Shown here: one piece after another, positions 4,489 through 62,678 of the stretch
Numbering within the stretch: the stretch's first letter is position 1
How the letters are laid out: each line of letters opens with the position of its first letter
From: Patescibacteria group bacterium
Lineage (GTDB): Bacteria; Patescibacteriota; Minisyncoccia; JACQLN01
Length of the DNA stretch: 64,000 nucleotides
Reading direction: 5' to 3'
Assembly (NCBI GenBank): GCA_038065095.1
Contig: JBBTRR010000004.1
Location: 15,998 to 79,997, forward strand
Translations under genes and position numbers: made by a program
The notes under the pieces: generated by a model
Told to the model about the DNA's origin: nothing
Seen by the model: the letters and a program-made list of their open reading frames with translations, nothing else
Databases searched by the model: none

Positions 4489-4500
4489 ATTTTAAATAGT

Positions 4501-18891: not shown

Positions 18892-18927
18892 ATCCTCATA
18901 ATCACGCTCGAGCGTGATTATGAGGAT
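18892..18927. repeat. CTCGAG-centred perfect palindrome, copy 1
   Basis: atcctcataatcacgctcgagcgtgattatgaggat, 18-bp perfect arms; downstream of the YraN-like gene. Confidence 0.6.
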
Positions 18928-19461: not shown

Positions 19462-19521
19462 AAAATAGAGTGTAGAATTAGATATATAGTTAAATGATTA
19501 CTTTTGATTGTTTCAAACTTT

Positions 19522-19553
19522 TCTCATTTTGTCGCTCGAGCGAAAAGATGAGA
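19522..19553. repeat. CTCGAG-centred palindrome, copy 2 (divergent promoter region)
   Basis: tctcattttgtcgctcgagcgaaaagatgaga, between the divergently transcribed YraN-like and PaaX-like genes. Confidence 0.6.
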
Positions 19554-19653
19554 TTGATGTGAAAAAAGAGAAAAGGAGAAGAGACGAGACAAAATATAAA
19601 AAATTAGAGAAATTAGAGATGGATAAGTTTATATAATTTACAAGTTTGAATAA

Positions 19654-20220
19654 ATGGATAAAAATAGTTTTAATAAATTAGGTCCAACTAAAAAGAAAAT
19701 AATATTATTGCTTGCTGGGGGAGTAGGGCTTTCTTTGGCAGGCACGCCCAAGAAATATTTTGGTGTTATTAAAAGTGTAGCAGATGAATGGAATAAAATT
19801 AATGAGACGTCTCTTAAGCGGGCTATAAAGTCGCTTTATGAATCAAAATTGATAGAGGCTAGGGAACATGAAAATGGTTCTATGACTGTAGTTCTTTCGG
19901 AAAACGGCCGTAAAAAGGCCTTAACTTATAATATGGATACTATGGCCATTAAAAAACCCGCCATTTGGGATGGTAAATGGCGAATGGTTATGTTTGATAT
20001 TCCTAATAAAAGAAAAAAGGAAAGAGATGTATTGAGAAATATGCTAAAACAACTTGGGTTTATAAAATATCAAGAAAGCGCCTTTATTTTGCCTTACGAA
20101 TGCAAAAACGAGGTAGATTATGTGGTTGAATTCTTTAACCTCCGCCCGCACGTTAGGTTTTTAGAAATAAGTAAATTTGATGATGACTTAGCTTTAAAAA
20201 ACAGATTTGGGTTGGTTTAG
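19654..20220 (+). CDS. PaaX-like winged-helix regulator
   Basis: N-terminal wHTH-like region; C-terminal WDGKWRMVMFDIPNKRKKERDVLRNMLKQLGFIKYQESAFILPY resembles the PaaX C-terminal domain. Confidence 0.45.
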   Translation: MDKNSFNKLGPTKKKIILLLAGGVGLSLAGTPKKYFGVIKSVADEWNKINETSLKRAIKSLYESKLIEAREHENGSMTVVLSENGRKKALTYNMDTMAIKKPAIWDGKWRMVMFDIPNKRKKERDVLRNMLKQLGFIKYQESAFILPYECKNEVDYVVEFFNLRPHVRFLEISKFDDDLALKNRFGLV

Positions 20221-20239: not shown

Positions 20240-20271
20240 TCTCATTTACTCGCTCGAGCGAGAAGATGAGA
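20240..20271. repeat. CTCGAG-centred palindrome, copy 3
   Basis: tctcatttactcgctcgagcgagaagatgaga downstream of the PaaX-like gene, followed by a second terminator hairpin acctccgaagggttacccttcggaggt. Confidence 0.6.
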
Positions 20272-23401: not shown

Positions 23402-23496
23402 ATATCAAACATAAAAAATCTTGAATTAGTTTTTTATATTTTATTTTTGATACTTAATTTAAAACTTGTTAAGTCTAACACATTGAATATAAGATG

Positions 23497-25334: not shown

Positions 25335-25769
25335 TTAATGACCTTCTAAAAATTTTAGAATATAATCAATGTATTTATGATAATCCCTTAAGCAATCATT
25401 AATAGAAGCATATACTTTTTCGTAATCTATTTTATCGTATTCATGCACTAAAAGATTTCTAGTGCCGATGCTTTTGGCGATTTCTTGGGCAAACTCTTTA
25501 GGGTAGATGTCTAAATCCGAAAGCCTTAAAAATGTTTCTCGGTAATCTTTAGGAGGCATGGTGTTTGCGGTGGCAAGTTCGGCAATAAGGTGTTCGTTGA
25601 TGTCTATAGCCCGCGAGATTGTTCGTTCCAAGAGCCGTTCTACCGTAGCTTGTTTTAAAAAATCTCCCACAATTTCTTCAATGGAAAAATTAGATAATTG
25701 AGCGAGTTTGCTCAAATCATCCTGAATAAGAGATATTTTTCTCTGAATTAAATCTTTTTTAAACATCAA
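25335..25769 (-). CDS. HEPN-domain toxin (DUF86-like)
   Basis: 144 aa; GTRNLLVHEYDKIDYEKVY contains the Rx4-6H HEPN motif. Downstream of an MNT gene (MNT-HEPN order). Confidence 0.7.
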   Translation of the reverse strand: MMFKKDLIQRKISLIQDDLSKLAQLSNFSIEEIVGDFLKQATVERLLERTISRAIDINEHLIAELATANTMPPKDYRETFLRLSDLDIYPKEFAQEIAKSIGTRNLLVHEYDKIDYEKVYASINDCLRDYHKYIDYILKFLEGH

Positions 25770-25770
25770 A

Positions 25771-26193
25771 TTATATAGCTAGAGCCTCTTGCCTCTTTTT
25801 TATAATTAACGATTCCAAATCACGTAATGACTGGCTGTCTATATAGTCTTTGAAAGCGAAGATACGATAGTCTTGGTAAGAAGTTTCATCACCGTAAAGC
25901 AAGATTCCGTTTTGGGTGGCTTCATAACGTAAAAGTATATTAGCTGGCGACAAATCTACCAGATCTATTTTTCTAAAGCCCGATGACAAAGCGTCCGGTA
26001 GTTCGCTACTGATGTTTAAGAAGGATTTATAATCAAGTAAACTATGGTTTTTCCGCAAAACCGCTATGTCTATGTCGCTGGAATCCTTCATTAAACCAGA
26101 AGCCGCACTACCAAAAACCACCACAAACTTCAGGTTGTAGTTTTGGGCGATTTTTTCCACTTGCAGTTTGCTATCCTTTATATTCAACATCAT
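25771..26193 (-). CDS. MNT-type minimal nucleotidyltransferase (HEPN/MNT antitoxin)
   Basis: VVVFGSAASGLMKDSSDIDIAVL matches the GS-x9-DxD NTase motif; 1-bp spacing to the HEPN gene. Confidence 0.75.
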   Translation of the reverse strand: MMLNIKDSKLQVEKIAQNYNLKFVVVFGSAASGLMKDSSDIDIAVLRKNHSLLDYKSFLNISSELPDALSSGFRKIDLVDLSPANILLRYEATQNGILLYGDETSYQDYRIFAFKDYIDSQSLRDLESLIIKKRQEALAI

Positions 26194-31156: not shown

Positions 31157-31222
31157 TAGCTTTTAGGTGGATTAGCTTCATTAGCTTTCAGCAAAACTAA
31201 TTAAGCTAAAAGCTAAAAGCTA

Positions 31223-31777
31223 ATGAAGCTAAAAATGATTCCCCAAGGAGGATTTTTAAATCCAGACTCTATAATTTCTAGTTTAAATATTAAATCAGGC
31301 TATAAAGTTGCCGATTTTGGTTCTGGTTCTGGTTTTTTTGCTTTGCTTATTGCGGCGATTGTTGGTTCGGACGGTTCGGTTACGGCTATAGATGTTTTGC
31401 AAGGTAAACTGGATACTTTAAAGTCTGCGGCGCAAGCTCGGGGGCTTTTTAACATAAGCTATGTCAGAGGCGATTTAGAAGTTTTTGGTAGTTCTAAACT
31501 TAACGATTTAAGCCAAGATATGGCTCTTTTAACAAATATTTTGTTCCAATCACAAAAAAAGTTGGATATTCTTAAAGAAGCACACAGAGTTTTAAAAGTA
31601 GGCGGAGAGTTAGTTATAGTAGATTGGGATCCAACCTCTATGTTTGGTTCTAAAGAAACTGGTTGGAAGTTTTCTAAAGAGGAGTGCCAGCAGATAGCTT
31701 CTGGAATTGGTTTTAATTTTGATAGAGAAATTACTGCAACTAATGATCATTGGGGATTAGTGTTTAAGAAAACATAA
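31223..31777 (+). CDS. Class I SAM-dependent methyltransferase
   Basis: VADFGSGSGFFALLIA glycine-rich SAM-binding motif I. Confidence 0.65.
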   Translation: MKLKMIPQGGFLNPDSIISSLNIKSGYKVADFGSGSGFFALLIAAIVGSDGSVTAIDVLQGKLDTLKSAAQARGLFNISYVRGDLEVFGSSKLNDLSQDMALLTNILFQSQKKLDILKEAHRVLKVGGELVIVDWDPTSMFGSKETGWKFSKEECQQIASGIGFNFDREITATNDHWGLVFKKT

Positions 31778-33154: not shown

Positions 33155-33180
33155 TTTTCAATGGCCGATTTACTAAAATA

Positions 33181-33300
33181 AAAAATTAAAATGTAAAGTG
33201 CAAAATGACAAATCAAAATTTAAAGTTGAATTCAAGAGACAAAAAGTTATTTTTATTTTTTATATGTCATTTTAATATTTGATTTTTAATGTTTAATATT
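33181..33300. repeat. AT-rich palindromic intergenic repeat, copy 2
   Basis: Matches 4501-4612. Confidence 0.5.
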
Positions 33301-35261: not shown

Positions 35262-35406
35262 TGTTATTAGGTATTATTTTTTTCTAAATAAGATATTTAA
35301 AAAACACTCCGATTTTTGTCGGAGTGTTTTAGTTTATCCCGTTAGAAGCTCTGTTGCCTTCTTTAAAGGTGTGGATTTGAGTTTTTAAAAATGTTACAAT
35401 TTAGAT

Positions 35407-35718
35407 ATGGAAGAGACAACCCTGTCGTCAAAAACTGAGCGATTGCCAGAGTTTTTTAGGCCACTTTTTTGGTCGTATAATTTTGATTATATTGATCCCG
35501 ATAAAGACATAAAAACAATAGTTTTGAATGTGATAAATTATGGGTATTGGAAACACTGGCATTGGTTGGTTTATCATTACGGCATAGATGTCATTAGAAA
35601 TATTTTGACCCATTTTTTGTCAACGGAACTTAGGCCGCCAGCGGAAAAACTAGCGAGGGTTGTATTCAATTTAAAATCTCTTAACAATGCATCTCGAAGC
35701 ACTAACCAAGACAGGTAG
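35407..35718 (+). CDS. Hypothetical small protein overlapping the AbiEii gene (possible cognate antitoxin)
   Basis: 103 aa; overlaps the downstream NTase toxin gene by 32 nt in a different frame (typical TA coupling). No recognisable domain. Confidence 0.3.
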   Translation: MEETTLSSKTERLPEFFRPLFWSYNFDYIDPDKDIKTIVLNVINYGYWKHWHWLVYHYGIDVIRNILTHFLSTELRPPAEKLARVVFNLKSLNNASRSTNQDR

Positions 35719-36307
35719 GGAAATTTTTCCAATTCTCAAGAATTTTTCGGAATTCTATTTAGCTGGCGGCACGGCTTTGGCTTTGCAATTAGGTCATCGC
35801 GTTTCGGCTGATTTTGATTTATTTAGCGGGATTGATATTCCGGCAGAATTACTGCCACTGGTTCAAAAGACTTTTGATAAAAAGACTTTTCAAATCAGCG
35901 TCAATAACAGAGAGGAACTGACAGTATTTATAAATGGCGTTAAGATTACTTTTTTGAATTATCCATTTCCAGTTTTAGAAGATACAACTGAATATGAAGG
36001 TTTAAAAATGTTAGGCGTTTCCGAAATAGCCACAACCAAAGCTTATACTATCGGGCGCCGAGGCTCGTTTAAAGATTATGTTGATTTATATTTTGCAGTT
36101 AAGGAAAAAATTATTGGTTTGGACGGAATTATTAAACAGGCTGATAAAAAATATGGGGGATATTTTAACGGTCGTCTGTTTTTAGAACAGTTGGTTTATT
36201 TAAATGATATTGAGGATACAGAGATTATTTTTCTAAAAGAAACAGTGGATAAAAATAATCTAGAGGAGTTTTTTGTGGCAGAAATTAAAAAGATCAAATT
36301 TGATTGA
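35687..36307 (+). CDS. AbiEii/AbiGii-family nucleotidyltransferase toxin (DUF1814)
   Basis: FYLAGGTALALQLGHRVSADFDLF and KDYVDLYF motifs are characteristic of AbiEii. Confidence 0.65.
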   Translation: MHLEALTKTGREIFPILKNFSEFYLAGGTALALQLGHRVSADFDLFSGIDIPAELLPLVQKTFDKKTFQISVNNREELTVFINGVKITFLNYPFPVLEDTTEYEGLKMLGVSEIATTKAYTIGRRGSFKDYVDLYFAVKEKIIGLDGIIKQADKKYGGYFNGRLFLEQLVYLNDIEDTEIIFLKETVDKNNLEEFFVAEIKKIKFD

Positions 36308-40383: not shown

Positions 40384-40645
40384 GGGCGAGTGGATTAAAA
40401 GCAAATGTTTTTGCTTTTAATGGCCAACTACATTAATTAATATGATTTATAGGTTGGCCTTGGAGAAATTGGCAGAATTATTCTACACAAAGTGCTGGGG
40501 TGGCGAAATTGGTAGACGCACTAGCCTTAGGAGTTAGCGGGGCAACCCATGGGAGTTCGAGTCTCCCCCCCAGCACTTTGTGTAGAATACCGCAAGGATT
40601 AATCGTGACAACGTCACGATTAATGGTTCAAATCCCACCTCGCCC
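40384..40645. repeat. About 260-bp multi-level inverted-repeat structure enclosing tRNA-Leu
   Basis: Outer IR GGGCGAGtGG / CCaCCTCGCCC. Two perfect palindromes, attaaaagcaaatgtttttgcttttaat (40394-40421) and attaatcgtgacaacgtcacgattaat (40598-40624). Inner 13-bp IR ttctacacaaagt / actttgtgtagaa directly abuts the tRNA acceptor ends. Confidence 0.5.
40494..40575 (+). tRNA. tRNA-Leu (anticodon UAG), class II with long variable arm
   Basis: GCTGGGG-TG-GCG-AAATTGGTAGA-CGC-A-CTAGC-CTTAGGA-GTTAG-CGGGGCAACCCATG-GGGAG-TTCGAGT-CTCCC-CCCCAGC-A. Confidence 0.85.
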
Positions 40646-44734: not shown

Positions 44735-46060
44735 ATGATTGATTTAAAACAATTTATTTCGGCTATAGACCAAATTGCCGAGGAAAAGGGTATTCCTAGG
44801 GAAAAAGTCATGGAAACCATAGAAATGGCCATGGCTGCCGCCTATAAAAAGGATTATGGCGAAAAAGGTCAAAATATAAGGGTAGTGTTAGATCCTAAAA
44901 CTGGAACTGCTAAGTTTTTTCAGGTTCTTTTGGCTGTGGATGAAAGTATGATTTTTTCGGAAGAAGAAATTGCTAAAATGGAAGCTGATCGAGCCGAAAG
45001 GGAGGCTAAATTGAAAGGAGAAACAGTTGAAAAATCAGAACAAACTTCAACGGGTGAATCCTCCTTCGCTAAAGCTATGGAGGACGAGGATGATGAGATA
45101 GTATCAGGCGTGACGCAGGATAAAAAATTCCGTTTTAATCCAAAACGCCATGTTTTAATTGATGAAGCTAAAAAAACCAAGTCTGACATTGAACTTGGTG
45201 GAGAGCTTCTGATTCCATTAGATACTAAAGAAGACTACGGTCGTATTGCTGCTCAAACAGCTAAGCAGGTTATTATTCAGCGTATTCGTGAAGCCGAAAG
45301 GGAGGTCGTTTACGCAACCTTTAAAGAAAAAGAAGGCGATATTCTTTCGGCTACTGTTCAAAGGGTTGAACGTGGCACGGTTTACTTAGATATTGGAAAA
45401 ACAACAGGGTCTTTGTTTCCAGAAGAACAAATTCCACAAGAAAGGTATCGTATTGGCCAGCGTTTAAGAGTTTATGTGGTTAGAGTAGAAAAGGATCATC
45501 GTGGTCCGGCTATTATACTTTCACGTAAGCATCCTAAGATTATTGCCAAACTTTTCGAACTAGAAGTTCCAGAAATCGCCACAGGTGTAGTAGAAATTAA
45601 AGCTATTGCTCGTGAAGCTGGTTCTAGAAGCAAAGTCGCGGTTTATTCTAGTGATCCCGGAATTGATCCGGTAGGATCTTGTGTTGGACAAAGAGGTATT
45701 AGGGTCAGCGCTGTTATTAGTGAGCTTGGTGGAGAAAATATAGATATTGTAGCTTGGTCCAACGATGAATCTAAACTAATAGCGAGCGCACTTTCTCCTG
45801 CTAAAGTTTTAAATGTTGATTTAAATGAGGTTCATCATATAGCCACTGTAGATGTAAGCGAGGATCAACTTTCTTTGGCTATTGGTAAGAGGGGGCAAAA
45901 TGTTAGATTAGCTGCCGAACTTACGGGTTGGAAAATAGATGTTAAGGGAACTGCGCCTATTATTAAAGAGGAAGCAAAAACAGAATCGGAAAATGAAGAA
46001 ACGGTAGTAACTGAATTAAGTGAAGTGATTAGTGAAGAAAAATTAAAAGAAAATATCTAA
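44735..46060 (+). CDS. nusA: Transcription termination/antitermination factor NusA
   Basis: N-terminal NusA domain, S1 and two KH regions (GQRGIRVSAVISELGGENIDI...; IGKRGQNVRLAAELTGWKIDV); acidic insertion. Confidence 0.9.
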   Translation: MIDLKQFISAIDQIAEEKGIPREKVMETIEMAMAAAYKKDYGEKGQNIRVVLDPKTGTAKFFQVLLAVDESMIFSEEEIAKMEADRAEREAKLKGETVEKSEQTSTGESSFAKAMEDEDDEIVSGVTQDKKFRFNPKRHVLIDEAKKTKSDIELGGELLIPLDTKEDYGRIAAQTAKQVIIQRIREAEREVVYATFKEKEGDILSATVQRVERGTVYLDIGKTTGSLFPEEQIPQERYRIGQRLRVYVVRVEKDHRGPAIILSRKHPKIIAKLFELEVPEIATGVVEIKAIAREAGSRSKVAVYSSDPGIDPVGSCVGQRGIRVSAVISELGGENIDIVAWSNDESKLIASALSPAKVLNVDLNEVHHIATVDVSEDQLSLAIGKRGQNVRLAAELTGWKIDVKGTAPIIKEEAKTESENEETVVTELSEVISEEKLKENI

Positions 46061-46180
46061 TACCCAATTACTAATATCTAATCAATTTCTAATGTTTAAA
46101 TGCCCAATTTTAGAACTTAGTCATTAGACATTTGCGTTTGATTAGAAATTAGATATTAGAAATTAAAATTTTTTAAAAAA

Positions 46181-48157: not shown

Positions 48158-48167
48158 TTTTTTACAC

Positions 48168-48245
48168 ATCACTCCTCACAGACGATATGGAGCCTCTTTA
48201 TTTATATAAATTGTCTTCTCCATAATGCTGTTCGGAGTGATGTGT
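48168..48245. repeat. Terminator-loop palindromic insert element, copy 1
   Basis: CACTCC-tca-[cagacgatatggagcctctttatt...ttgtcttctccataatgctg]-tt-CGGAGTG. The outer stem equals the plain terminators at 35306-35335 and 57565-57598. Confidence 0.6.
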
Positions 48246-48258
48246 ATGTAAATAAATA

Positions 48259-49524
48259 ATGAAATTAGAATCAAAAGATTTACCAAAGTCTCAATTAGAG
48301 TTAGCTATAACTTTATCATCTGACGAGTTGGAAAAATATTTAGACGCAAGTGTGCGTGAACTTTCTCGTCATAATCCCATAAAGGGTTTTAGACCTGGTT
48401 TTGCTTCACGTGATGTTGTGGTTCGCGAATTAGGCAAAGAAAAAGTGGAACATGTTGCCTTTGACATTGCTGTTCGTGAAAAACTAACAGAAGTTATTAA
48501 CGAAAAAAAGATAAGTTTTGTGGGCGAACCTAAAGTTTCCAAAGTTTTACCTAAAGATGGCGGTATTGAATTTAGCGCTGTGCTTTCGGTTGTGCCACAA
48601 ATTGATCCAGGTGAATATAAAAAAATAAAAATATCTTTAGATGAAGTTAAAGTTGAAGAAAAAGAAATTGCAGAAGTTTTGGAAGATATAAGAAAATCTC
48701 GAACCCAAAATTTTAATGTTGATCGTGCTGCCGATAAAGGCGATAGAGTGGAAATTGATTTCTTGGTTAAAAAAGAAGGGGTGCTTGTTGATGGCGGAGA
48801 ATCTAAACAGCATCCTTTAGTTTTAGGTGAAGGACATTTTATAGAAGGTTTTGAAGACAATATTGTTGGTTTAAAAGAAGGCGAAACTAAGAATTTTTCT
48901 TTAACTGCTCCAGTAAATTATCACAATAAAGATATGGCGGGTAAAAAGATAGATTTTGAGGTTAAAATGAATTTGGTTCAGGCAAGAAAATTACCAGAGC
49001 TTACCGATGAGTTTGTAAAGTCTTTAGGTAAGTTTGCTTCGTTAGAAGATTTGAAATCTAATATTATTGAAGGTATTAAAATTGAAAAGAAAGCTAAAGC
49101 AGAAGAAAAACGCAGAGCTAAAATTGTAGAAGAATTAGTTAAAAATATTAAAGTAGAATTACCTCAAGAGCTTATAGAAATGGAATTTGAAAAAATGACG
49201 GCGGAACTAGCCGATTCATTAAGGCAGATGAATTTAACGCTAGAAAATTATTTAAATCATATTAGTAAAACTCCAGAAGAATTAAAAAAGGATTGGGAAC
49301 CTCAAGCTGAAAAAAGAGTTAAAGCAGCGCTAGTATTAAAAGAAATTTCTAAAAGAGAAAATGTGGAGGTTGCAGAAGCTGAAATAGAAGAAAAGTTAAC
49401 AGCTATGATGCGCCAAGCTCCGCCGCTCGCGCCTAATCAAAATCTTGATTTGACAGCATTAAGAGGGTATGTTAAAAACATAATACGAAACGAGAAAGTA
49501 TTTAAGGTTTTAGAAAACCAGTAA
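48259..49524 (+). CDS. tig: Trigger factor
   Basis: 421 aa; N-terminal ribosome-binding domain with GFRPG motif; central PPIase-like and C-terminal arms. Confidence 0.85.
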   Translation: MKLESKDLPKSQLELAITLSSDELEKYLDASVRELSRHNPIKGFRPGFASRDVVVRELGKEKVEHVAFDIAVREKLTEVINEKKISFVGEPKVSKVLPKDGGIEFSAVLSVVPQIDPGEYKKIKISLDEVKVEEKEIAEVLEDIRKSRTQNFNVDRAADKGDRVEIDFLVKKEGVLVDGGESKQHPLVLGEGHFIEGFEDNIVGLKEGETKNFSLTAPVNYHNKDMAGKKIDFEVKMNLVQARKLPELTDEFVKSLGKFASLEDLKSNIIEGIKIEKKAKAEEKRRAKIVEELVKNIKVELPQELIEMEFEKMTAELADSLRQMNLTLENYLNHISKTPEELKKDWEPQAEKRVKAALVLKEISKRENVEVAEAEIEEKLTAMMRQAPPLAPNQNLDLTALRGYVKNIIRNEKVFKVLENQ

Positions 49525-49546
49525 ATCAAGTGGTTTATAAGCAGAA

Positions 49547-49635
49547 CATTCCTCGCAGACGATATATGAATCTTGCCTAAGCAAGATTCATCGTCAACTG
49601 ATTTAGGTTTTCTCCATAATGCTACTCGGAGTGTT
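49547..49635. repeat. Terminator-loop palindromic insert element, copy 2 (variant core)
   Basis: cattcctcgcagacgatat-[atgaatcttgcctaagcaagattcat]-...ctccataatgctactcggagtg; overlaps the over-extended ORF-track start of clpP. Confidence 0.55.
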
Positions 49636-49656
49636 TTGATTACAATACATAAAACC

Positions 49657-50241
49657 ATGAATTTAATTCCAACAGTTATAGAAAAAACTTCGTATGGCGA
49701 AAGGGCTTACGATATATACTCGCGATTACTTAAAGAAAGAATCGTGTTTTTGGGTGGTTCCATAAACGATGCAGTTGCCAACACTGTAATTGCTCAACTT
49801 TTGTTTTTAGAAAGCCAAGATCCTAAAAAAGAGATCAAACTTTATATAAATAGCCCAGGTGGTTCTGTTACCGCAGGACTGGCTGTTTACGATACAATAC
49901 AGTTAATTAAAAGCGATGTTTCTACTATTTGTGTGGGTATAGCGGCTTCAATGGGCGCAGTTTTGCTGGCTGGTGGTAAAAAGGGTAGAAGATTTTCTTT
50001 GCCAAATAGCGAAGTTATGATTCACCAAGTTATGGGCGGGGTAGAAGGCCAAGCTGTAGAAATAGAAATTTCTGCTCGGCATATAATTAAAGTTAAGGAC
50101 AGGTTAAATAAAATTTTGGCTAAGCATAGTGGCAAGAGCCTAAAAGATATAGAAAAAGATACAGATAGAGACCATTTTATGTCTGCAGAAGAAGCCAAGG
50201 CTTATGGAATTGTGGATGAAATAATTTCGGCTAAAAAATAA
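49657..50241 (+). CDS. clpP: ATP-dependent Clp protease proteolytic subunit
   Basis: [32 protein letters not shown]...; catalytic Ser (GIAASMG), His and Asp contexts. The ORF-track start at 49573 lies inside the upstream repeat, so ATG at 49657 is preferred. Confidence 0.9.
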
Positions 50242-50292
50242 AAGAAGCAGGCAAAACTGCAAAAAAGAACGGTTGATAGCCGTTCTTTTTCA

Positions 50293-51879
50293 TTATTTAT
50301 ATAATATTGGGAGTAGGCTTTTGCCATCCATATCGCTAGGCGCATTGATTTGCATTAGGTCTAGAACAGTAGCCGCCACATCTTGCAGTATACCTTTTAC
50401 ACCAGTTTTTTCTTCTCGTAATTCTTTTATTTTCTCTGATGTTTTTTCTTTTTTTAATTGATTCGTCACTAAATACAGTGGCACGGGGTTTATGGTGTGT
50501 TCGGTATTTATTTCTCCGCTAAGAGTATTTATTTTGAGTTCAGCGTTGCCATGATCGGCAGTTATTATTAAAGTTCCGTTAACTTCTAAAACAGCGTCCA
50601 TTATTTTTTTTACAGCCAAATCAATTGATTCAACTGATTTTATTGTTGCGGATAAATCGCCAGTGTGCCCAACCATATCAGCATTGGCTAAATTAGCTAA
50701 AAGAAAATCGTATTTTGCAGATTTTATAGCGCTAGTCAAACCCTCGGCTATTTCAAAAGCTTTCATCTTCGGAACATCGCTAAAATGTGTGGCGGTTGCA
50801 GATTTTATAAGCTGTCTTTCTTCACCTTCGAACGCGCTTTCTTGCCCGCCGTTAAAAAAATAAGTTACATGCGCATATTTTTCTGTTTCGGCAATTTTAA
50901 ATTGTTTTTTGCCGTTTTCTGAAAGTATTTGAGAAAGTGTATACTTTAGTTCGAGGGGGGGGAATATAACCTCTGCAGGTAAACCTTTTTCGTAGGGGGT
51001 TAACATTGCATAGAAATTATTTTTTGTTTCTTTGTGCGAAAATTCTTTAAATTTTGGCTCAGCTATAGCTTTTACAAGTTCGCGGGCTCTGTCTTCTCTA
51101 AAATTAAAAAATATAACAACATCACCGTCTTTTACTGTACCTAGTGGTTCATTTTTTTCATCTACTAAGACAATAGGTTCTAAATAATTATCGTTTATAT
51201 TTTTGGCATATTGGTTTTTTATTGATTGAATAAAATCTTGGGTTTTTTCGCCTTGGCCTTCTATTACTAGACGATAAGCTTTTTCTATTCTATCCCAGTG
51301 GGCATCTCTATCCATACTGTAAAATCTGCCAATACAACTTGCGATTTTACCTTTACCGAGCCAGTTTAATCTTTCAATTAAATTTTGTATAAGTGTCGCC
51401 GCCTCTTTAGGTGGGCTGTCTTGGCCATCGGTTGAAAGATGCAACCAGATTTCTTTTACATTTTCGTTTTTAGCCATTTCAACAAGTGCATATAAGTGGT
51501 CTATATAAGAATGCACCGAACCCGAACCAACCAAACCAACTAAGTGCCAAGCGGAATTATTTTCTTTGGCATGTGCGATCGCTTTTTTTAAAACTGGATT
51601 TTGAAAAAAACTTCCATTTTGAATAGCAAAAGTTATGCGGGTTAAGGGTTGTTGCCAGATTTGGCCTGTACCCATAGCAGTGTGACCCACTTCGGAATTT
51701 CCAGCTTCACCCCACGGCAAACCCACTGGTACACCCGAAGCCTGCAACAAAACAAAAGGATAGTTTTTTTCTATAAAATCTAAGTTTGGTTTATTGGCTT
51801 GAGTTATGGCGTTACCCTTACTTTCTTCGCCTACACCATAGCCATCTAAAATTAGTAGAACAACAGGTCTCATTACCAT
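50293..51879 (-). CDS. gpmI: 2,3-bisphosphoglycerate-independent phosphoglycerate mutase
   Basis: 528 aa; N-terminal VVLLILDGYGVG, metal-binding ITADHGNAE and DGRD-like motifs of iPGM. Confidence 0.9.
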   Translation of the reverse strand: MVMRPVVLLILDGYGVGEESKGNAITQANKPNLDFIEKNYPFVLLQASGVPVGLPWGEAGNSEVGHTAMGTGQIWQQPLTRITFAIQNGSFFQNPVLKKAIAHAKENNSAWHLVGLVGSGSVHSYIDHLYALVEMAKNENVKEIWLHLSTDGQDSPPKEAATLIQNLIERLNWLGKGKIASCIGRFYSMDRDAHWDRIEKAYRLVIEGQGEKTQDFIQSIKNQYAKNINDNYLEPIVLVDEKNEPLGTVKDGDVVIFFNFREDRARELVKAIAEPKFKEFSHKETKNNFYAMLTPYEKGLPAEVIFPPLELKYTLSQILSENGKKQFKIAETEKYAHVTYFFNGGQESAFEGEERQLIKSATATHFSDVPKMKAFEIAEGLTSAIKSAKYDFLLANLANADMVGHTGDLSATIKSVESIDLAVKKIMDAVLEVNGTLIITADHGNAELKINTLSGEINTEHTINPVPLYLVTNQLKKEKTSEKIKELREEKTGVKGILQDVAATVLDLMQINAPSDMDGKSLLPILYK

Positions 51880-51972
51880 ATTATACTTGAGACTAGATTT
51901 TACTGCTCTATTGACACTTTCTTAAAAATTATTGTATCTTAGAGTTAAATGGTTCTTTAACAAAAAAGGAGA

Positions 51973-53184
51973 ATGGTAATGTTAGCAAAGGAACTTTTAG
52001 TTCGAGAAGAAGAGCCTCTAATTACTACTGAAGAGCAAATTTCTTTCAGTCAGGAGAAAGAAGAGGTTGAAATAGATTTAGCTAAAAAAGCCAAGGAAAT
52101 TTTAGGTTATACACCTCTTATTTTGGAGCAAGAAAGAAAAATACGAAAGAATAAAGAAGCCAAAGATCGTTTTCTTTTCAGGACAGCTATATTTATGGCT
52201 GGTATACAACCTTTCAAGTTGAAATCAGTAGTGGATTATAAGGAAGCTGCAGTTAGGGAGAAACTTGATTTTCGTGGCCAGATGGTAGAAAAGGTTTACA
52301 AAGGATCTATATATTTGTGGGGAGCATTAGTAGTTGTCGGAGTGGTTTTATTTTTAGCCTATGCGACTGCAGATAAAATTGCCGAAGATACCTCGTCTTA
52401 TTCGGTATTTCAAGATACAGAAACAGGGCGTGGTTTAGGATTTAGAATTGCGTGGGAGATGATAGGAATATTTCCAAGATCAACGGAAATTATCATCACT
52501 CCAACCGAACAAGAAATAGAGAGTTGGATCCGACGACAGATTCTGGATGAAAATCTGCGTGGTAGTCAAGTTCAAAAAAGATTGAGAGAAATGGCTGAAC
52601 AGCATTTTCTAAAATCCAGCTTGAGCATAGGTGATCCTCGAGTGATTCGTAACTTTGTATTACGTTTTGCTTTACCTATTTTTCTGGTGGTTGTGCTGGT
52701 CAAATTATTTTTTGACAGGCGTTTACGAGAGCATCTTCCCACTAGAAGAGTTTTTTGGAAGTTGATACCAATTAAGGACTATGATCAGCCAGTTCCAGAA
52801 TCTGTTTTACAAACAGCGGTCAAAATTGGGGAACGTAATCCAGAACTAGAATTCTTTGTTGATAATCTGATGGAAAAGAAATTGCCCCAACGTTTCTGGG
52901 TGCACACTTTAGTTTTAGTTCCAGTGTTGACGTTGGTTATGTATTACGCTGGTACTAGGTTGTCAGAAATGCTTTGGATGTATCTTGCTTCGATAGCTAT
53001 GTCTGGAACTGCTATAGCCATTGCCAATGCAGCAACTATGGTTGCACCGATTGTAGTGGACCCGTTCTTGGTTGTGAGGCATAAGGATTATCCTAATGTG
53101 CCAGAAGAATACTATGTTTATGTTTGGGATGAACCAAAGTTTGAAAGGCAAACCAACACAAGAGGGAGCGCGCATCTTAACTAG
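51973..53184 (+). CDS. Membrane protein, hypothetical
   Basis: 403 aa with about 4 TM helices and no recognisable domain. Confidence 0.45.
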   Translation: MVMLAKELLVREEEPLITTEEQISFSQEKEEVEIDLAKKAKEILGYTPLILEQERKIRKNKEAKDRFLFRTAIFMAGIQPFKLKSVVDYKEAAVREKLDFRGQMVEKVYKGSIYLWGALVVVGVVLFLAYATADKIAEDTSSYSVFQDTETGRGLGFRIAWEMIGIFPRSTEIIITPTEQEIESWIRRQILDENLRGSQVQKRLREMAEQHFLKSSLSIGDPRVIRNFVLRFALPIFLVVVLVKLFFDRRLREHLPTRRVFWKLIPIKDYDQPVPESVLQTAVKIGERNPELEFFVDNLMEKKLPQRFWVHTLVLVPVLTLVMYYAGTRLSEMLWMYLASIAMSGTAIAIANAATMVAPIVVDPFLVVRHKDYPNVPEEYYVYVWDEPKFERQTNTRGSAHLN

Positions 53185-53263
53185 AAGGTAATGTTCAAAA
53201 AGTTATTTTATTCTACTAAACCCCACTAAACAGTGGGGTTTTTGTTACTTAAACACACAGTTA

Positions 53264-53587
53264 TTGACAAACTACGGGGTGATATGCTATGATGTAAACA
53301 TCAGAAAAAAGGGTAGTTCCTTCTTAATGTCCTATATGGACGATAGGGTCGTTATGAAATATCTAGTTGGATTCTGGATGTTCGTGGTCGGCTATTATGG
53401 TTTTTTGAACATTCTACTTCAGGAGACCTACAAGTCGCCTGTCGGGTCAGCCTCTCCGTATTACACTGTACCTGGCGTACACACAGATACGTCGGATATG
53501 ACCTTGATAGTGGGGGGAACACTCTTTATTCTGTTCATGATGTGGTTGAACAGAAAGAGGGAGACCCGCTATCCGTTCCAAAACTGA
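53264..53587 (+). CDS. Small two-TM protein, hypothetical
   Basis: 107 aa; two hydrophobic helices. Confidence 0.3.
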   Translation: MTNYGVICYDVNIRKKGSSFLMSYMDDRVVMKYLVGFWMFVVGYYGFLNILLQETYKSPVGSASPYYTVPGVHTDTSDMTLIVGGTLFILFMMWLNRKRETRYPFQN

Positions 53588-53655
53588 AGATTGAGTCTGG
53601 AAGACTTGAATCTTCTTGACCCCTTGAATATTGAAATTTGTTCAGGGGGTCTTTT

Positions 53656-53913
53656 TTATCTGTAAATATCTTTACGATGATCTATGTCAAAAAAGATGGC
53701 GGTATCGGTTGTGTGGAAATAAAAAAGCACCCGATAATTTCGGGTGATGCGAAAAGAGAAAACATGCTTTAAGGTTTTATTCTTTTTTATATGAAGACGA
53801 GGACTTCGCCAGTCGGTTAAAAAGAAATCCTCTTGAATCTGATAAAGCCGTTGAATTGCTTGGGGTAATTTCTTGAAAGCGCGTTTAAAATCGTCAGTTT
53901 GAATTATTCTCAT
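53656..53913 (-). CDS. RelE/ParE-family toxin
   Basis: 85 aa; ...HVFSFRITRNYRVLFYFHTTDTAIFFDIDHRKDIY. Confidence 0.65.
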   Translation of the reverse strand: MRIIQTDDFKRAFKKLPQAIQRLYQIQEDFFLTDWRSPRLHIKKNKTLKHVFSFRITRNYRVLFYFHTTDTAIFFDIDHRKDIYR

Positions 53914-54107
53914 GCCGATAATGGCGGGTACAGCTTTGAGGCTTTTTTATAAGAATTTTTGATTCTAGTAGGATGAGCATAATCTTTTAAATCTTCTTGT
54001 GGAAAATCAGAAGTCATTTTTTGAATAACATCAAAACGCTCGGCCTTTTCCACGAGCTCTTGGTATCTTTCTTTGGTTAAGGTTATCTTACCATTCATAG
54101 TATACAC
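53910..54107 (-). CDS. Putative antitoxin partner of RelE-like toxin
   Basis: 65 aa immediately upstream with 4-bp overlap to the toxin gene. Confidence 0.45.
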   Translation of the reverse strand: MYTMNGKITLTKERYQELVEKAERFDVIQKMTSDFPQEDLKDYAHPTRIKNSYKKASKLYPPLSA

Positions 54108-54174
54108 TTTAGCTAAAATGTCTGTATTTGTAAAATAATTTGCCAGTAGGTAGTAAAATTGATATCATTTCGGT

Positions 54175-54450
54175 ATGAGAAAAAGGACTAAAATACAATC
54201 ACAATATTATGTAACTTATGAACGCGATGGCAAAAAAGGTTATGTGGCTTCGGCGCCAGCCATCACTGGTTGCGTTGTTTATGGAAAAACGCTTGAGGAA
54301 GCTCACCAGAACATAAGTTCGGCCATTAAAGAATGTTTGGAAGTGATTCATCAGTTTAACAAAGATACTCCTAAAGAAACTATGGAGCCAAAAGAAGTAC
54401 GCAAATTTTCCTTCGTTAAAGTTAGACAGCGTGAATATGCTAAAACTTAA
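54175..54450 (+). CDS. hicB: HicB-family antitoxin (UPF0150)
   Basis: YYVTYERDGKKGYVASAPAITGCVVYGKTLEEAHQNISSAI parallels the HicB copy at 26968. Confidence 0.65.
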   Translation: MRKRTKIQSQYYVTYERDGKKGYVASAPAITGCVVYGKTLEEAHQNISSAIKECLEVIHQFNKDTPKETMEPKEVRKFSFVKVRQREYAKT

Positions 54451-54658
54451 ACCAATCGGTTATGGTGAGTTTGCAAGAAAACTGATTCGCGCTGGCTATA
54501 TGCCTATTAGAAAATCTAAACACACTATCTATTTTCATTCCGTAAAAAATATAACTATACCTTTTCCTCATAAACATGCTCACGACATACCTACTGGCCT
54601 GTTAAATAAACTTATCAAAGAAATGGGTTTATCGCGCGAGGATTTTGGGCGACTTTAG
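54431..54658 (+). CDS. hicA: HicA-family toxin
   Basis: 75 aa; ...KHTIYFHSVKNITIPFPHKHAHDIPTGLLNKLIKEMGLSREDF (HicA/YcfA pattern). Overlaps hicB. Confidence 0.65.
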   Translation: MNMLKLKPIGYGEFARKLIRAGYMPIRKSKHTIYFHSVKNITIPFPHKHAHDIPTGLLNKLIKEMGLSREDFGRL

Positions 54659-54805
54659 AAATTTTATTTTACTCTCGTTGATGTTTAGTATCAACTCACC
54701 CCGATTTTAAATCTGGGCTTTACACAGTAGCAACTGTTTTGGGCACACACATATGGCGGATTGATTAATTTGTCAGTTTTATAATGCTGGGTTATACTAC
54801 TTTCA

Positions 54806-55030
54806 ATGATAAGGATAAGCTATAGCAAGCATTCTTTAGATAGATTAAGAAAAAGAGGTATATCTAAAAATCTTGTTCACGAGGCTATAGAGAAAGGACA
54901 AGAAAGGAAGTTGCAATTAAATCTGGGAACTGTTAAATGTGTTTATGCTAAGAGTGGCAAAAAGTTAGTGGTTATTTATCTTCAGAACAAAGAGAATTTT
55001 AAAATTGTAACTGCTTACTACCAAGATTAA
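54806..55030 (+). CDS. DUF4258-family putative toxin
   Basis: 74 aa; ISYSKHSLDRLRKRGISKNLVHEAIEKG...KLVVIYLQ...KIVTAYY matches the DUF4258 consensus. Confidence 0.6.
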   Translation: MIRISYSKHSLDRLRKRGISKNLVHEAIEKGQERKLQLNLGTVKCVYAKSGKKLVVIYLQNKENFKIVTAYYQD

Positions 55031-55045
55031 AAGTAATATATAAAT

Positions 55046-55267
55046 ATGAAAATAAAATACGACAAAGAAGTGGATGTTTTATATATAGAACTTAAGAAAA
55101 GCCGGGTATATAAAACCGTGGAAACTCGGGACAGTTTTTTAATTGATTTTGATAAAGAAGGTCAAGTTATAGGTTTTGAAATATTGGGTTATTCTAAAAC
55201 GGTGCCTAAAGTGGACGAAAGATTTTCAGTGTATGCTGGGCAAAGCAGGATCAAAATTCCTGTATAG
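55046..55267 (+). CDS. DUF2283-family putative antitoxin
   Basis: 73 aa; MKIKYDKEVDVLYIELKK... is the canonical DUF2283 N-terminus; paired with DUF4258. Confidence 0.6.
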   Translation: MKIKYDKEVDVLYIELKKSRVYKTVETRDSFLIDFDKEGQVIGFEILGYSKTVPKVDERFSVYAGQSRIKIPV

Positions 55268-55518
55268 AATTATTTTTGTCGGGCATTGGGTTGTTGAGTA
55301 TATACATATCATTTTAACCTTGGGGTGTGAACCACAACAAGGTATTTACTTTTTTGCCTTATAAGTGTTAAGTTTAATTTGGTATTAATTTAAGATTTAG
55401 AGTTTGTTGGAGGTATACTTTGGGCCAAAAGGTACGAAAAGGTGGCACAAAGCATTAATATTTTACGTTTTTAAAATGTTTTTACAGGTTTTAAACCATC
55501 CGATAACTTACACACAAA

Positions 55519-57048
55519 ATGTTTTCATTGGGAATATTACCCCAACTAGTTTTGGTTGCGGCCATTGGCTTGGGGATAGGTTACTTTATACGCCAACAGA
55601 TAGCTCAAAGAAGGGCTGGTAGTTTGGAGGCGCGCCTCGCTAAAATGGTTGAAAAAGCCAAAGCCGAGGTAAAGGAAAAAGAAGATGAGGCCAAAGGAAA
55701 AGCGAGAGAAATTATAAACGAAGCCAAAGAAGAAACAGCTCGTAGGCAATCTCAACTTACCAAAATAGAAGATCTCTTACTTAAAAGAGAAGAGGGTTTA
55801 GAAAAAAAAATACAGGAAACAGAACGAAAAATAGAAGTTCTGGAGGGAGAGCGTGTTCAGGTTTCAAAAACCAAAGAAGTAGTAGAAGAAATAAGAAAAA
55901 AGGAAATATTAGAATTAGAAAGAATTTCTAATCTAAATCAAGAAAAAGCTAAGGCAGAACTTTTTAATCAACTAGAAAAAACTTACAGCGAAGATCTTTT
56001 AAGGCAAATTCATCGTTTACAAAACGAAAACAGAACTGAACTTGATAAAAAAACTCAAGATATTTTGGTTTCTTCGTTACAACGATATGCAGGTTCGGTG
56101 GTTTCCGAAGTAACAACTACTTATGTTAAGTTGCCCTCGGAAGAACTTAAGGGAAAAATAATTGGCAAAGAAGGTAGAAATATTAAGGCTTTAGAAAGAT
56201 TAACTGGTGTAGAAATTGTGGTAGATGAAACTCCGGATTCTGTTATGATTTCTGGTTTTGACCCGGTACGCAGGCAAATTGCTAAAACTGCTCTGGAAGA
56301 TTTAATAAAAGATGGACGCATTCAACCAGCAAAAATAGAAGAAGCTGTAGCTACTGCCCGTGAAAAGGTTAACGAAAAAGCTAAAGAAGCGGGAGAAGCC
56401 GCAGTTTTTGATCTAGGTTTAACGGGAATAGATCCAAGATTAATACAGCTTTTGGGTAGATTAAAGTTTAGAACTTCTTTTGGGCAAAATGTTTTAGATC
56501 ACTCGGTAGAGGCGTCTCATATAGCCGGGATGTTAGCAGTAGAACTTGGTGTTAATGTGCGTGTGGCTAAAATGGGAACGCTTTTTCATGATGTTGGAAA
56601 AGCTATAGACCACGAGGTTCAGGGTTCGCATGTAGATATTGGCCGAAGAATTTTACAAAAGTTTGGTGTAGATGAAAATGTTGTAAAAGCTATGCAGGCT
56701 CATCATGGTGAATATCCTTATGAAACTCCGGAAAGTATTATTGTTCAGGTAGCGGAATCAATTTCTGCAGCTCGCCCTGGCGCTCGCAAAGATTCTGTAG
56801 AAATTTATCTTAAACGTTTAGAAGATATTGAAAGAATCACCAACAGTTTTGAAGGTATTGAAAAGTCTTACGCCATACAATCAGGCCGAGAGGTTAGGGT
56901 GTTTGTAATGCCAGATAAAATTGATGATTTTGGTATGCATAAACTAGCCAAAGATATGGCGGCTAAGATTCAGGAGGAGCTTAGGTATCCTGGAGAAATT
57001 AAAATAACCGTTATTAGAGAAAATAGGGCGGTGGAATATGCAAAATAG
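55519..57048 (+). CDS. rny: Ribonuclease Y
   Basis: N-terminal TM, coiled-coil, KH domain (IIGKEGRNIKALERLTGVEIVVD) and HD domain (FHDVGKAIDHEVQGSHVDIG). Confidence 0.9.
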   Translation: MFSLGILPQLVLVAAIGLGIGYFIRQQIAQRRAGSLEARLAKMVEKAKAEVKEKEDEAKGKAREIINEAKEETARRQSQLTKIEDLLLKREEGLEKKIQETERKIEVLEGERVQVSKTKEVVEEIRKKEILELERISNLNQEKAKAELFNQLEKTYSEDLLRQIHRLQNENRTELDKKTQDILVSSLQRYAGSVVSEVTTTYVKLPSEELKGKIIGKEGRNIKALERLTGVEIVVDETPDSVMISGFDPVRRQIAKTALEDLIKDGRIQPAKIEEAVATAREKVNEKAKEAGEAAVFDLGLTGIDPRLIQLLGRLKFRTSFGQNVLDHSVEASHIAGMLAVELGVNVRVAKMGTLFHDVGKAIDHEVQGSHVDIGRRILQKFGVDENVVKAMQAHHGEYPYETPESIIVQVAESISAARPGARKDSVEIYLKRLEDIERITNSFEGIEKSYAIQSGREVRVFVMPDKIDDFGMHKLAKDMAAKIQEELRYPGEIKITVIRENRAVEYAK

Positions 57049-57064
57049 ATTATGTTACAAAAAA

Positions 57065-57133
57065 TCACCCCTCGCAGACGATATGGAGCCTCTTTATTAT
57101 ATTCTGGTCTTCTCCATAATGCTGCTTGGGGTG
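57065..57133. repeat. Terminator-loop palindromic insert element, copy 3
   Basis: tcacccctcgcagacgatatggagcctctttattatattctggtcttctccataatgctgcttggggtga downstream of rny. Confidence 0.6.
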
Positions 57134-57270
57134 ATTTTTTTATTTTTATTTTTCCACAACGAAAGATGAGGTTTATTGCGGAAAAATTGAAGGTCGGGTA
57201 TTATGGAGATAGTAAAGATGCGACTTTTTGGAAAGGTCGAATAAAAAGCGTAGTAATTGCTTAAAAAATA

Positions 57271-57543: not shown

Positions 57544-57597
57544 TATTTCTTATAACTTAAAAAATCACTCCGATCTATTCGGGGTGGTTTTAGTTTG

Positions 57598-57744
57598 GAG
57601 TGGGTAAGGGGAATCGGTCACAGATAATGCCTCACTGTCGCTCGGTATTTCTGCGACCCCAGCTCATCGCAATTTTTTTATAAAAATTGACGATTCCGCT
57701 TTTCGATTCCCCACGTGGGCAAATAAATTTGCCCACTTTACCCG
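57598..57744. repeat. tRNA-Gly-associated miniature element with conserved core (copy A)
   Basis: Begins with gagtgggtaaggggaatcg, a 19-bp copy (1 mismatch) of the 3' end of tRNA-Gly at 57786-57804. A conserved core gtcaca...tcgcgaccccagctcatcRcaatttt...aaaattgaYgattccgctttt is shared with 57963-58048. It then carries the inverted copy cgattcccc and a hairpin gtgggcaaataaatttgcccac. Confidence 0.55.
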
Positions 57745-61469: not shown

Positions 61470-61634
61470 GTTAGATATTAGCTTTCTAGCTCCTTAGCTC
61501 CTTAGCTTTTTAGGTAAGATTTCCTAGGAAGTTAATATACTAGAAAGCTAAAAGATATTTATGAAAGGATTTACCTCGACACAAGAAAATGGCGTTGTCT
61601 CTACAGCATTTTTAGTAAAATAAAGTTAGTTAAT

Positions 61635-62561: not shown

Positions 62562-62678
62562 TTTTTCGATATAATGATAGTTGTTAGTTATAAGTTTCTG
62601 TTTTTAGTTTAAGTTTTAAGTTAAACTGGCAACTATAACTATTAACTATAACTAGAAATTAAGAACTATAAACTGATT

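Follow-up and report, generated by a model that had tools for sequence, protein, structure and literature searches.

R1 is a family of long imperfect hairpins found behind the stop codons of housekeeping genes in a 64,000-nucleotide (nt) stretch of DNA, here called the window, from a Patescibacteria group bacterium (assembly GCA_038065095.1, contig JBBTRR010000004.1, positions 15,998 to 79,997 of the forward strand) and in related uncultured genomes. The repeat unit comprises a single hairpin of 80 to 110 nt, and it is this whole hairpin that is repeated. New copies arise in short spacers directly behind stop codons, including junctions at which the genes of relatives overlap, and the copies then persist for a long time while their pairing is kept by compensatory change. 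The reading that we favor, with some reserve, is that R1 is a dispersed, non-autonomous palindromic repeat of Parcubacteria-type Patescibacteria, of the same kind as REP/REPIN, ERIC, Correia, and SPRITE elements, and that it has come to act as a hairpin in mRNA, a role for which the host probably co-opted it.

The window contains three R1 copies. The initial annotation had described three look-alike hairpins at 48168-48245, 49547-49635, and 57065-57133, and their sequences are as described there. The copies and their parts are listed below in window coordinates; other loci are denoted by L and a number.

48163-48246, + strand: R1 copy 1, in the hppA-tig spacer (111.6 bits, E-value 1.5e-29).
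48176-48192, + strand: 5' core of copy 1, TC-ACAG-A-CG-A-TATGGAG, with columns that are invariant or nearly so in the 21-copy and 26-copy sets.
48218-48233, + strand: 3' core of copy 1, CTCCATA-A-TG-CTGT-TC, which pairs with the 5' core (same alignments).
49542-49638, + strand: R1 copy 2, between tig and clpP; belongs to the "copy-2" subfamily (40.4 bits, E-value 8e-9).
49558-49595, + strand: nested center module of copy 2, GACGATAT-ATGAATCTTGC-CTAA-GCAAGATTCAT-CGTC (predicted fold; the same composite occurs in L042).
57059-57140, + strand: R1 copy 3, after rny, terminator-like (99.1 bits, E-value 6e-26).
57134-57158, + strand: T-rich tract TTTTTTTATTTTTATTTTT, 3' of copy 3 and ahead of a conserved putative promoter and leader region of the HU gene.

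The scores derive from a covariance model that was trained on 21 copies from elsewhere and then applied to the window copies. With filters off, this model detects no fourth copy in the 64-kb window, and its next matches there, at 21 bits or less, are ordinary A-run/stem/T-run terminators with an unrelated stem. The 10-mer CAGACGATAT has three exact occurrences in the 64 kb, all on the + strand and all at the three sites, and each is paired with one of the three exact occurrences, also all on the + strand, of the 12-mer CTCCATAATGCT. When up to one mismatch is allowed, CAGACGATAT has nine matches versus 1.95 expected, and none of 100 shuffles yields as many. The predicted hairpins of copies 1, 2, and 3 have folding energies of -36.2, -33.6, and -35.7 kcal/mol, with z scores of -7.9, -4.7, and -8.0 against shuffled sequences.

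Copy 1 starts 6 nt past the hppA stop codon and ends 12 nt ahead of the tig ATG. Its outer stem, TACACATCACTCC/GGAGTGATGTGTA, is followed by the TC/TC internal loop, the inner stem, and a 25-nt terminal loop, and there is no T-run on its 3' side. The 5' core comprises half of the 2x2 loop, the second helix, a bulged A, the C-G/G.U pairs, the A of an A.A mismatch, and the top helix. Copy 2 retains both cores, and another hairpin stands in for the 5' half of its top helix. This alternative center hairpin, ATGAATCTTGCCTAAGCAAGATTCAT at 49566-49591, is present as the initial annotation reported, and its stem runs into the 5' arm of the R1 copy itself (GACGA/TCGTC). The outer stem of copy 3 is AAAAAATCACCCC/GGGGTGATTTTTT. 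A 70-amino-acid open reading frame (ORF) that is called as a gene in the public assembly (57052-57264; also L001 18794-19006) covers copy 3 and the HU leader, and is almost certainly a spurious gene call.

The outer stem of R1 has 11 to 20 bp, of which the outermost 5 to 10 bp are wholly different between loci yet nearly perfectly paired. Within this stem lies a semi-conserved 8-bp segment, ATYAYYCC/GGRRTRAT, that is homologous in all 26 aligned copies and differs among them mostly by transitions. The CACTCC/GGAGTG stem therefore belongs to the element, and is not, as had been supposed, part of an ordinary terminator that received an insert of about 50 nt. Inward of the 8-bp stem are a conserved 2x2 loop, TC/TC, and a helix, RCAG/CTGY. 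The inner core continues, in order, with a bulged A, a C-G pair, an invariant G.U pair, an A.A mismatch, and a top helix, TATGGAG/CTCCATA. In the 26 copies, this inner stem is nearly invariant, irregularities included. The terminal loop is variable (23 to 35 nt) and opens with CCTCTTTATT in most copies. As read from the sequence, the top helix and the CAG/CUG helix are alike on both strands.

A covariation analysis had been proposed as a check, and its outcome for the aligned copies supports the structure. Pairing holds in 94.8% of the cells of the 26-copy alignment (A3), and two-sided changes occur at 18 of its 26 pairs, which is matched by none of 500 shuffles. When, as a control, the partner is slid by one to three columns, pairing drops to 34-57%. 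The 21-copy set gave covariation too, and diverged copies also compensate in the inner helix, for example from UAU/AUA to CAC/GUG. Alignment A3 was fitted to the model's own structure, which favors pairing. However, four orthologous copies at galT-tpi that were aligned by hand keep their pairing as well, and 8 of the first 12 positions of their outer stem show two or three types of Watson-Crick pair. Compensatory change in R1 thus exceeds the controls and is also seen among orthologues.

At least 32 distinct copies at about 26 non-orthologous sites were collected from the window and from loci of at least 10 related uncultured genomes. The initial annotation had allowed that the hairpins might be restricted to three loci and lack compensatory base changes; neither is the case. 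A scan of GTDB species genomes for an exact pattern revealed 6 copies in 4 uncultured metagenome-assembled genomes (MAGs), labeled Yanofskybacteria, "Saccharibacteria", and "bacterium". Among the 119 listed matches of a metagenome scan with the 3'-half pattern TTCTCCATAATGCTRYTYR, about 24 are true and about 95 are chance matches. Model searches of fetched loci brought further diverged copies. The window comes from Hainich groundwater, and its trigger factor has identical counterparts on metagenome contigs from that site and in a MAG labeled Patescibacteria. No R1 match was found in viral contigs by scanning or in phage and plasmid collections by BLAST. In gathering mode, only tRNAs reach an Rfam gathering score in the window, and in E-value mode all Rfam matches of the copies are generic hairpins far below gathering. 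A likeness between the outer stems of L010 and L050 was considered as a sign of orthology and was ruled out by BLAST, which found no synteny.

All of the at least 32 copies are intergenic, and R1 fills the spacers in which it occurs. The model match, which is the hairpin with about 6 nt per side, begins 0 to 13 nt past the stop codon and mostly ends 2 to 30 nt before the next start codon. The neighbors are syntenic housekeeping genes: hppA, tig, clpP, and rny in the window; two transketolase halves, pfkB, fba, and eno-pyk in L065; the adk-map, ydjM-ruvX, and galT-tpi pairs in L060; and the rplC-rplD and rplN-rplX pairs of the S10/spc cluster in L038, L134, and L135. These sites are not cassettes and are mostly not operon ends. 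Relative to the flanking genes, 23 copies are in sense orientation, 5 are antisense, 3 lie between convergent genes, and 1 is unclear; with orthologous duplicates removed, about 17 are sense and 5 antisense. Most copies are sense-oriented within housekeeping operons or at their ends, and for this reason R1 is presumably co-transcribed. The antisense copies are equally intact (109.6 bits in L009 and 102.3 bits in L012). Copies are co-oriented within each contig, and the copy at L065 3494 is antisense to its flanking genes yet aligned with the other three of its contig. In L065 (12255-14213), transketolase is encoded by two genes, for the N-terminal and the pyrimidine-binding/C-terminal parts, with R1 in between; in the relative L050, the same spacer holds a palindrome of another kind.

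A T-run of at least five follows the full stem in only about 5 to 7 of 23 copies, and a run of four to seven T residues lies just past the conserved 8-bp stem in about half. Copy 3 and the copies in L011, L060 (at 7455), L015, and L027 have the makeup of intrinsic terminators, which most copies, including copy 1 and those at rplC-rplD and tktN-tktC, do not. A simple terminator scan, limited to loops of at most 8 nt, flags none of the R1 copies. The plain terminators that the initial annotation placed near 35306-35340 and 57565-57598 are present, have CACTCCGA stems, and serve as comparators.

35299-35332, + strand: plain terminator (A-run, CACTCCGA, loop, TCGGAGTG, T-run) after a pilin-like gene; not a family member.
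57560-57592, + strand: plain terminator, CACTCCGA/TCGGGGTG with one U.G pair, after the HU gene; not a family member.

Both hairpins have the form CACTCCGA...TCGGRGTG, with stems at 35305-35326 and 57566-57586, and share their C-rich 5' arms with the plain terminators of the genome. The former reaches only 18.5 bits, from a model match that spans a deletion. The latter has orthologues in L011 (CACCCCGA/TCGGGGTG), L131, and L132.

Syntenic loci of relatives were fetched via homologues of tig, L4, and Map. At adk/map and ydjM/ruvX, the genes of L068 and L137 overlap by 1 to 4 nt, and L060 has one complete R1 per junction. In L136, the closest relative (Map 89% identical), the adk-map spacer is an unrelated 35-nt sequence with a small hairpin, and in L138 it holds a different "ACGAAT" palindrome. 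Because the R1 junctions of L060 correspond to gene overlaps or to an unrelated hairpin in relatives, no host terminator existed there before, and the whole hairpin, outer stem included, was gained. The initial annotation asked whether orthologous terminators in relatives lack the insert. Junctions that are empty or otherwise filled do occur, but the adk-map and ydjM-ruvX junctions of L068 and L137 have no terminator at all. At hppA-tig, R1 is present only in the window, and L131, L132, and L133 each have their own long AT-rich palindrome. At tig-clpP, it is present in the window and in L133, whose copy is a standard R1 with a standard center (65 bits). At rny-HU, it is present in the window and L011 (rny 90% identical) and not in L131 or L132. 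The same extended hairpin in relatives, which would have favored a conserved terminator over a mobile insert, is thus seen at two of these sites (tig-clpP in L133, rny-HU in L011), but not at hppA-tig. R1 therefore has both non-orthologous copies and differences in presence at orthologous junctions, as expected of a family that spreads.

Where copies are retained, they can be well conserved. Between L038 and L135, the arms of the rplC-rplD copies match at 58 of 61 positions and the 3' flank is identical, versus 71-73% identity in the flanking coding sequence, and the other orthologous pairs with conserved arms have identities of 0.82-0.96 versus 68-90% in coding sequence. Across six orthologous pairs, the arms are 0.58-0.96 and the loops 0.32-0.88 identical. 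At galT-tpi, diverged R1 copies are found in four genomes. The suggestion that these hairpins are a conserved structured RNA at the 3' ends of genes thus agrees with long retention at some orthologous sites, but not with the patchy presence of R1. Beyond copy 3, about 110 nt ahead of the HU (Bac_DNA_binding) gene (window 57150-57270) are far better conserved in L011, L131, and L132 than the adjoining spacers are. This region is without an Rfam match, and may be a promoter with a structured 5' leader.

The inner parts of R1, its loop and mini-hairpins, have been swapped between copies or added at fixed unpaired positions, and this is the true kernel of the earlier idea of an insert within a loop. 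The composite of copy 2 also occurs in L042 (4309-4419), between typA-like and RRM-protein genes; because this site is non-orthologous, the copy-2 subfamily is dispersed. Copy 3 and its L011 orthologue have identical stems and loops that differ far more than the flanks do, and the loop of copy 3 is closer to that of its paralogue, copy 1, than to that of L011. A tandem pair in L068 has the outer arms AAATATAT in common and different cores. The rplC-rplD copy of L135 carries two extra hairpins, one per strand at the A.A mismatch. The 3' extra hairpin, the 19-nt, GC-rich CCTGCCCGCCTYTGGCGGG, is found at the same internal position in the non-orthologous rplN-rplX copy of L038, and the orthologues of both copies are without it. 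Its locations are as follows.

L135 7940-7957: mini-hairpin CCTGCCCGCCTYTGGCGGG, inside R1.
L038 13544-13561: mini-hairpin CCTGCCCGCCTYTGGCGGG, inside R1.
L133 19910-19927: mini-hairpin CCTGCCCGCCTYTGGCGGG, outside any R1.

Several observations weigh against a dispersed repeat with a role in mRNA. No target-site duplication or direct repeats flank the copies, and no transposase, RAYT, or other copying enzyme is found in about 330 kb of annotated R1-bearing sequence. Transposase-type Pfam domains are absent from the 34 window ORFs that were scanned, the listed gene calls (window 38259-59524), and the called genes of L131-L138, and the sole tyrosine recombinase nearby is a syntenic XerC/D-like gene. 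There is no autonomous long R1 among the listed metagenome matches, where each true 3' half has a 5' half at most 110 nt away. The outermost 5 to 10 bp, locus-specific yet perfectly paired, are not explained by simple cut-and-paste; such flanks might come from template switching at a hairpin, from insertion into an older AT-rich palindrome, or from compensation in situ. In two of the six orthologous pairs, the coding sequence on either side is better conserved than the arms. Finally, in 22 of 26 copies the more stable fold is that of the strand complementary to the mRNA-sense strand, by a mean of 3.6 kcal/mol (Wilcoxon p = 0.0003, for copies that are not independent). Transition-type mismatches on the sense strand amount to 25 A.C versus 7 G.U, and to 4 versus 1 in the galT-tpi orthologues; many are shared by descent, and the asymmetry shrinks to about 14 versus 6 over independent position-types. 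With that caveat of shared descent, the strand asymmetry is the reverse of what selection on an mRNA hairpin predicts, and the plain terminators of the window show the opposite asymmetry, with U.G on the mRNA strand. On the complement strand, TC/TC turns into tandem G.A and the 25 A.C mismatches turn into G.T. The asymmetry hints at selection on folded template-strand DNA, through an attC- or REP-like mechanism.

One alternative, then, is that R1 acts as folded single-stranded DNA, a substrate for recombination or transposition in the manner of attC, REP/RAYT, or IS200/IS605-like elements, with the complement of the mRNA-sense strand as the active strand. The stability of that strand in 22 of 26 copies and its tandem G.A and G.T pairs fit this idea, as do bulged and mismatched bases that can be read as protein recognition marks, an architecture parallel to that of attC, the co-orientation of copies within a contig (even the gene-antisense copy at L065 3494), and the addition of modules at fixed unpaired positions. 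It is nonetheless quite unlikely, given that R1 has neither conserved AAC/GTT triplets (half of the copies read CTGCTC) nor a GTAG-type tetranucleotide, that its neighbors are genes of housekeeping operons and not cassettes, that the annotated genes include no integron integrase, Y1/HUH transposase, or RAYT and, as the only tyrosine recombinase nearby, the XerC/D-like gene, and that the mismatch asymmetry is about 14 versus 6 by independent position-types. A somewhat better case, although still a rather unlikely one, is that R1 is primarily a cis-acting RNA hairpin of the host, recognized by a specific RNase or RNA-binding protein much like the RNase III signals of phage T7, and that its spread is secondary. 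The bias toward sense orientation (23 to 5, or about 17 to 5 when orthologous duplicates are removed) and the exact fit between the stop codon of one highly expressed housekeeping gene and the start codon of the next point this way. At rplC-rplD, moreover, identity is 95-100% in the arms, with their locus-specific outer stem, and in the 3' flank, versus 72% in coding sequence; four orthologues keep the structure despite sequence turnover, the irregular core is invariant, and helices that are the same on both strands could be used in either orientation by an enzyme specific for double-stranded RNA. However, relatives have no spacer, or unrelated palindromes, at the same junctions, antisense copies are as intact as sense copies, and the asymmetries of mismatches and stability favor the strand that is not in the mRNA.

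The initial annotation raised a third possibility, in which a mobile palindrome of about 50 nt (CAGACGATATGGAG...CTCCATAATGCTG) specifically targets the loops of intrinsic terminators that are already in place, so that the terminator stem ends up as the outer stem. Of this proposal, the repeat family and the nesting at unpaired positions stand. The inner part of R1 follows paralogy and the outer stem follows orthology (copy 3 with L011, copy 2 with L133, the L068 tandem pair), outer stems past the 8 bp are locus-specific but paired and often of the A-run/T-run type, two plain terminators of the window also have the CACTCC/GGAGTG stem, and the same spacers have repeatedly been occupied by different palindrome families. 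The pre-existing terminator does not stand: the 8-bp stem is homologous in all copies and so is part of the element, the empty sites of L068 and L137 are gene overlaps without a hairpin, and the hairpin of L136 is unrelated to the outer stem of L060. Copies also lie inside ribosomal-protein and glycolytic operons, in which terminators are not expected, most copies are missing a proper U-tract, and the 5' side reads CC-TC in R1 versus CC-GA in plain terminators, which argues against simple insertion into a loop. We consider this possibility improbable. That R1 copies are ordinary intrinsic terminators alike by chance or convergence is scarcely credible. Copy 3 and a few others do have an A-run, stem, and T-run, and plain terminators share the C-rich 5' arms, but motifs with at least 24 specified bases recur across genomes, model E-values reach 1e-29 whereas plain terminators score 21 bits or less, and the invariant irregularities, subfamilies, and operon-internal copies speak against convergence. 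A broader proposal, which we regard as doubtful, is that R1 and its nested modules are moved by a structure-targeted process, which places modules into unpaired hairpin positions or directly behind stop codons, makes or maintains locus-specific palindromic flanks, and acts on the folded complement DNA strand through an unrecognized enzyme, its products being kept as hairpins inside operons.

Intergenic palindromic repeats, the class to which we assign R1, are well known, and a review describes REP, ERIC, Correia, RUP, SPRITE, and RPE elements (PMC3184786). The R1 family itself, its host lineage, its sites in essential operons, and its modular nesting are new as far as our literature search shows; the literature on palindromic, REP, or miniature inverted-repeat transposable elements (MITEs) in the Candidate Phyla Radiation (CPR) yielded no description of dispersed palindromic repeats in CPR/Patescibacteria. 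Like REP/REPIN elements, which are mobilized by RAYT transposases in Enterobacteria and Pseudomonas, R1 is an intergenic palindrome located at the 3' ends of genes and in operons, with many copies, vertical persistence, and a compensated hairpin. REP palindromes are short, of 20 to 40 nt, often occur as inverted doublets, and typically flank a RAYT (Y1/HUH) gene. R1, in contrast, is a single hairpin of 80 to 110 nt with an invariant irregular inner stem, in a CPR host with a tiny genome. Its stem has no conserved 5' tetranucleotide of the REP type (GTAG/GTGG), its flanks are locus-specific, and so it is not a REP/REPIN element as defined by a short GC-rich palindrome and a tetranucleotide. Passages of PMC3184786 and PMC3116915 report that REP elements affect mRNA stability.

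The ERIC/IRU repeats of Enterobacteriaceae, imperfect palindromes of about 127 bp, resemble R1 in size and as co-transcribed intergenic hairpins. Longer ERIC variants result from internal insertions at fixed sites. ERIC-type sequences end in inverted repeats and are flanked by a 5'-TA-3' motif (PMC3184786), and a passage of that review, citing De Gregorio 2005, describes an orientation-dependent effect on upstream mRNA via RNase cleavage. R1 has no TA or other duplication and no sequence similarity to ERIC. Nor does it combine terminal inverted repeats, a TA duplication, and an autonomous insertion sequence as MITEs do, and its termini are inverted because the whole element is palindromic. SPRITE elements are dispersed repeats that resemble an intrinsic terminator in structure (PMC3184786, Table 1), as copy 3 does. 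However, only a minority of R1 copies have a U-tract, R1 occurs in essential operons, and sequence and host are unrelated. The RPEs of Rickettsia are palindromic repeats that proliferate in a reduced genome (PMC3184786, Table 1), as R1 does, although RPEs are often in frame within coding genes, whereas R1 copies are all intergenic.

Other parallels lie outside this class. The attC sites of integrons are imperfect palindromes at the 3' ends of genes that, like R1, have a stem/spacer/stem arrangement with extrahelical bases, a variable loop, more constraint on structure than on sequence, and strand asymmetry. R1 differs in that R'' (RYYYAAC) and R' (GTTRRRY) boxes and IntI are not seen and its neighbors are syntenic housekeeping genes; GTT is present in about half of the copies (CTGTTC versus CTGCTC), and AAC is not conserved. 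The gene-R1-gene-R1 arrays of L065 and L060 were considered as integron cassettes, an idea ruled out by the syntenic housekeeping genes and the missing R boxes. The RNase III hairpins of T7 early genes are likewise intercistronic and have a conserved asymmetric internal loop between upper and lower stems. After cleavage, such a hairpin stays on the upstream mRNA as a protective 3' hairpin. R1 differs from these signals as a chromosomal repeat family in both orientations, and its processing is putative. K-turns, loop E, and group II domain V were rejected as matches, in view of the lack of a GA/AG tandem beside a 3-nt bulge and of an AGC triad. TIGR arrays, which a passage of PMC12045711 places in CPR, were rejected because R1 is dispersed and not in tandem.

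If R1 is a dispersed repeat that the host has adopted, the RNA hairpin may protect mRNA 3' ends or serve as a processing signal, for example as a site for a double-strand-specific RNase or a barrier to PNPase. The window has genes for both PNPase and RNase Y. Only copies with a U-tract behind them would also terminate transcription. The invariant region of the bulge, G.U pair, and A.A mismatch would be the recognition site of a trans-acting protein, either the enzyme that copies R1 or a factor that binds or cleaves RNA.

Few known genomes are as streamlined as those of CPR/Patescibacteria. In the genomes studied here, several palindrome families, of which R1 is the best defined, occupy spacers in essential operons, for example in the S10/spc ribosomal-protein cluster and among glycolysis genes. 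Regions of this kind are "repeat deserts" in Pseudomonas (PMC3184786). As a processing, stabilizing, or termination signal, R1 would offer a handle on the control of expression in bacteria that cannot be grown by themselves. As a purely selfish element, it would show that hairpin repeats are able to invade minimal genomes and to persist there. In practice, R1 is a sequence-specific lineage marker, and also a source of spurious ORF calls.

A second palindromic family, of about 120 nt with periodic TCTAAT/ATTAGA arms, is found in the nusA-hppA spacer of the window (46050-46173) and in L131 (9878-10001), L134 (7859-8004), and L133 (7795-7927). In MAG GCA_030697795.1, near-identical members take up the hppA-tig and rplC-rplD spacers, which are R1 sites in other genomes. 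Further long AT-rich imperfect palindromes lie in window spacers at 4494-4621, 10924-10996, 18249-18354, 23390-23458, 31157-31232, 33175-33286, 61478-61551, and 62572-62654. Their arms have a period of 5 to 7 nt (ATCAAA, TTAGC, AACTA), and the orthologous spacers of relatives have CCAAAT, ACGAAT, and ATCTCA types. Long spacer hairpins seem to be a general trait of the lineage.

Three shorter palindromes in the window (18892-18927, 19508-19567, and 20240-20271), one of them a perfect 36-mer, are centered on CGCTCGAGCG and have arms similar to TCTCAT/ATGAGA. They are arranged around the gene of a PaaX-like regulator (19654-20220) and a UPF0102 gene, and may serve as operators. A tRNA at 40494-40575 lies within a 28-nt inverted repeat, 93% complementary (40479-40506/40562-40589), that extends beyond the acceptor stem and may be a processing stem. 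Modules of the toxin-antitoxin type (HepT/MNT, AbiEii, HicAB, and DUF4258/DUF2283) occur in the window at 25335-26193, 35687-36307, and 54175-55267, in what is a small genome.

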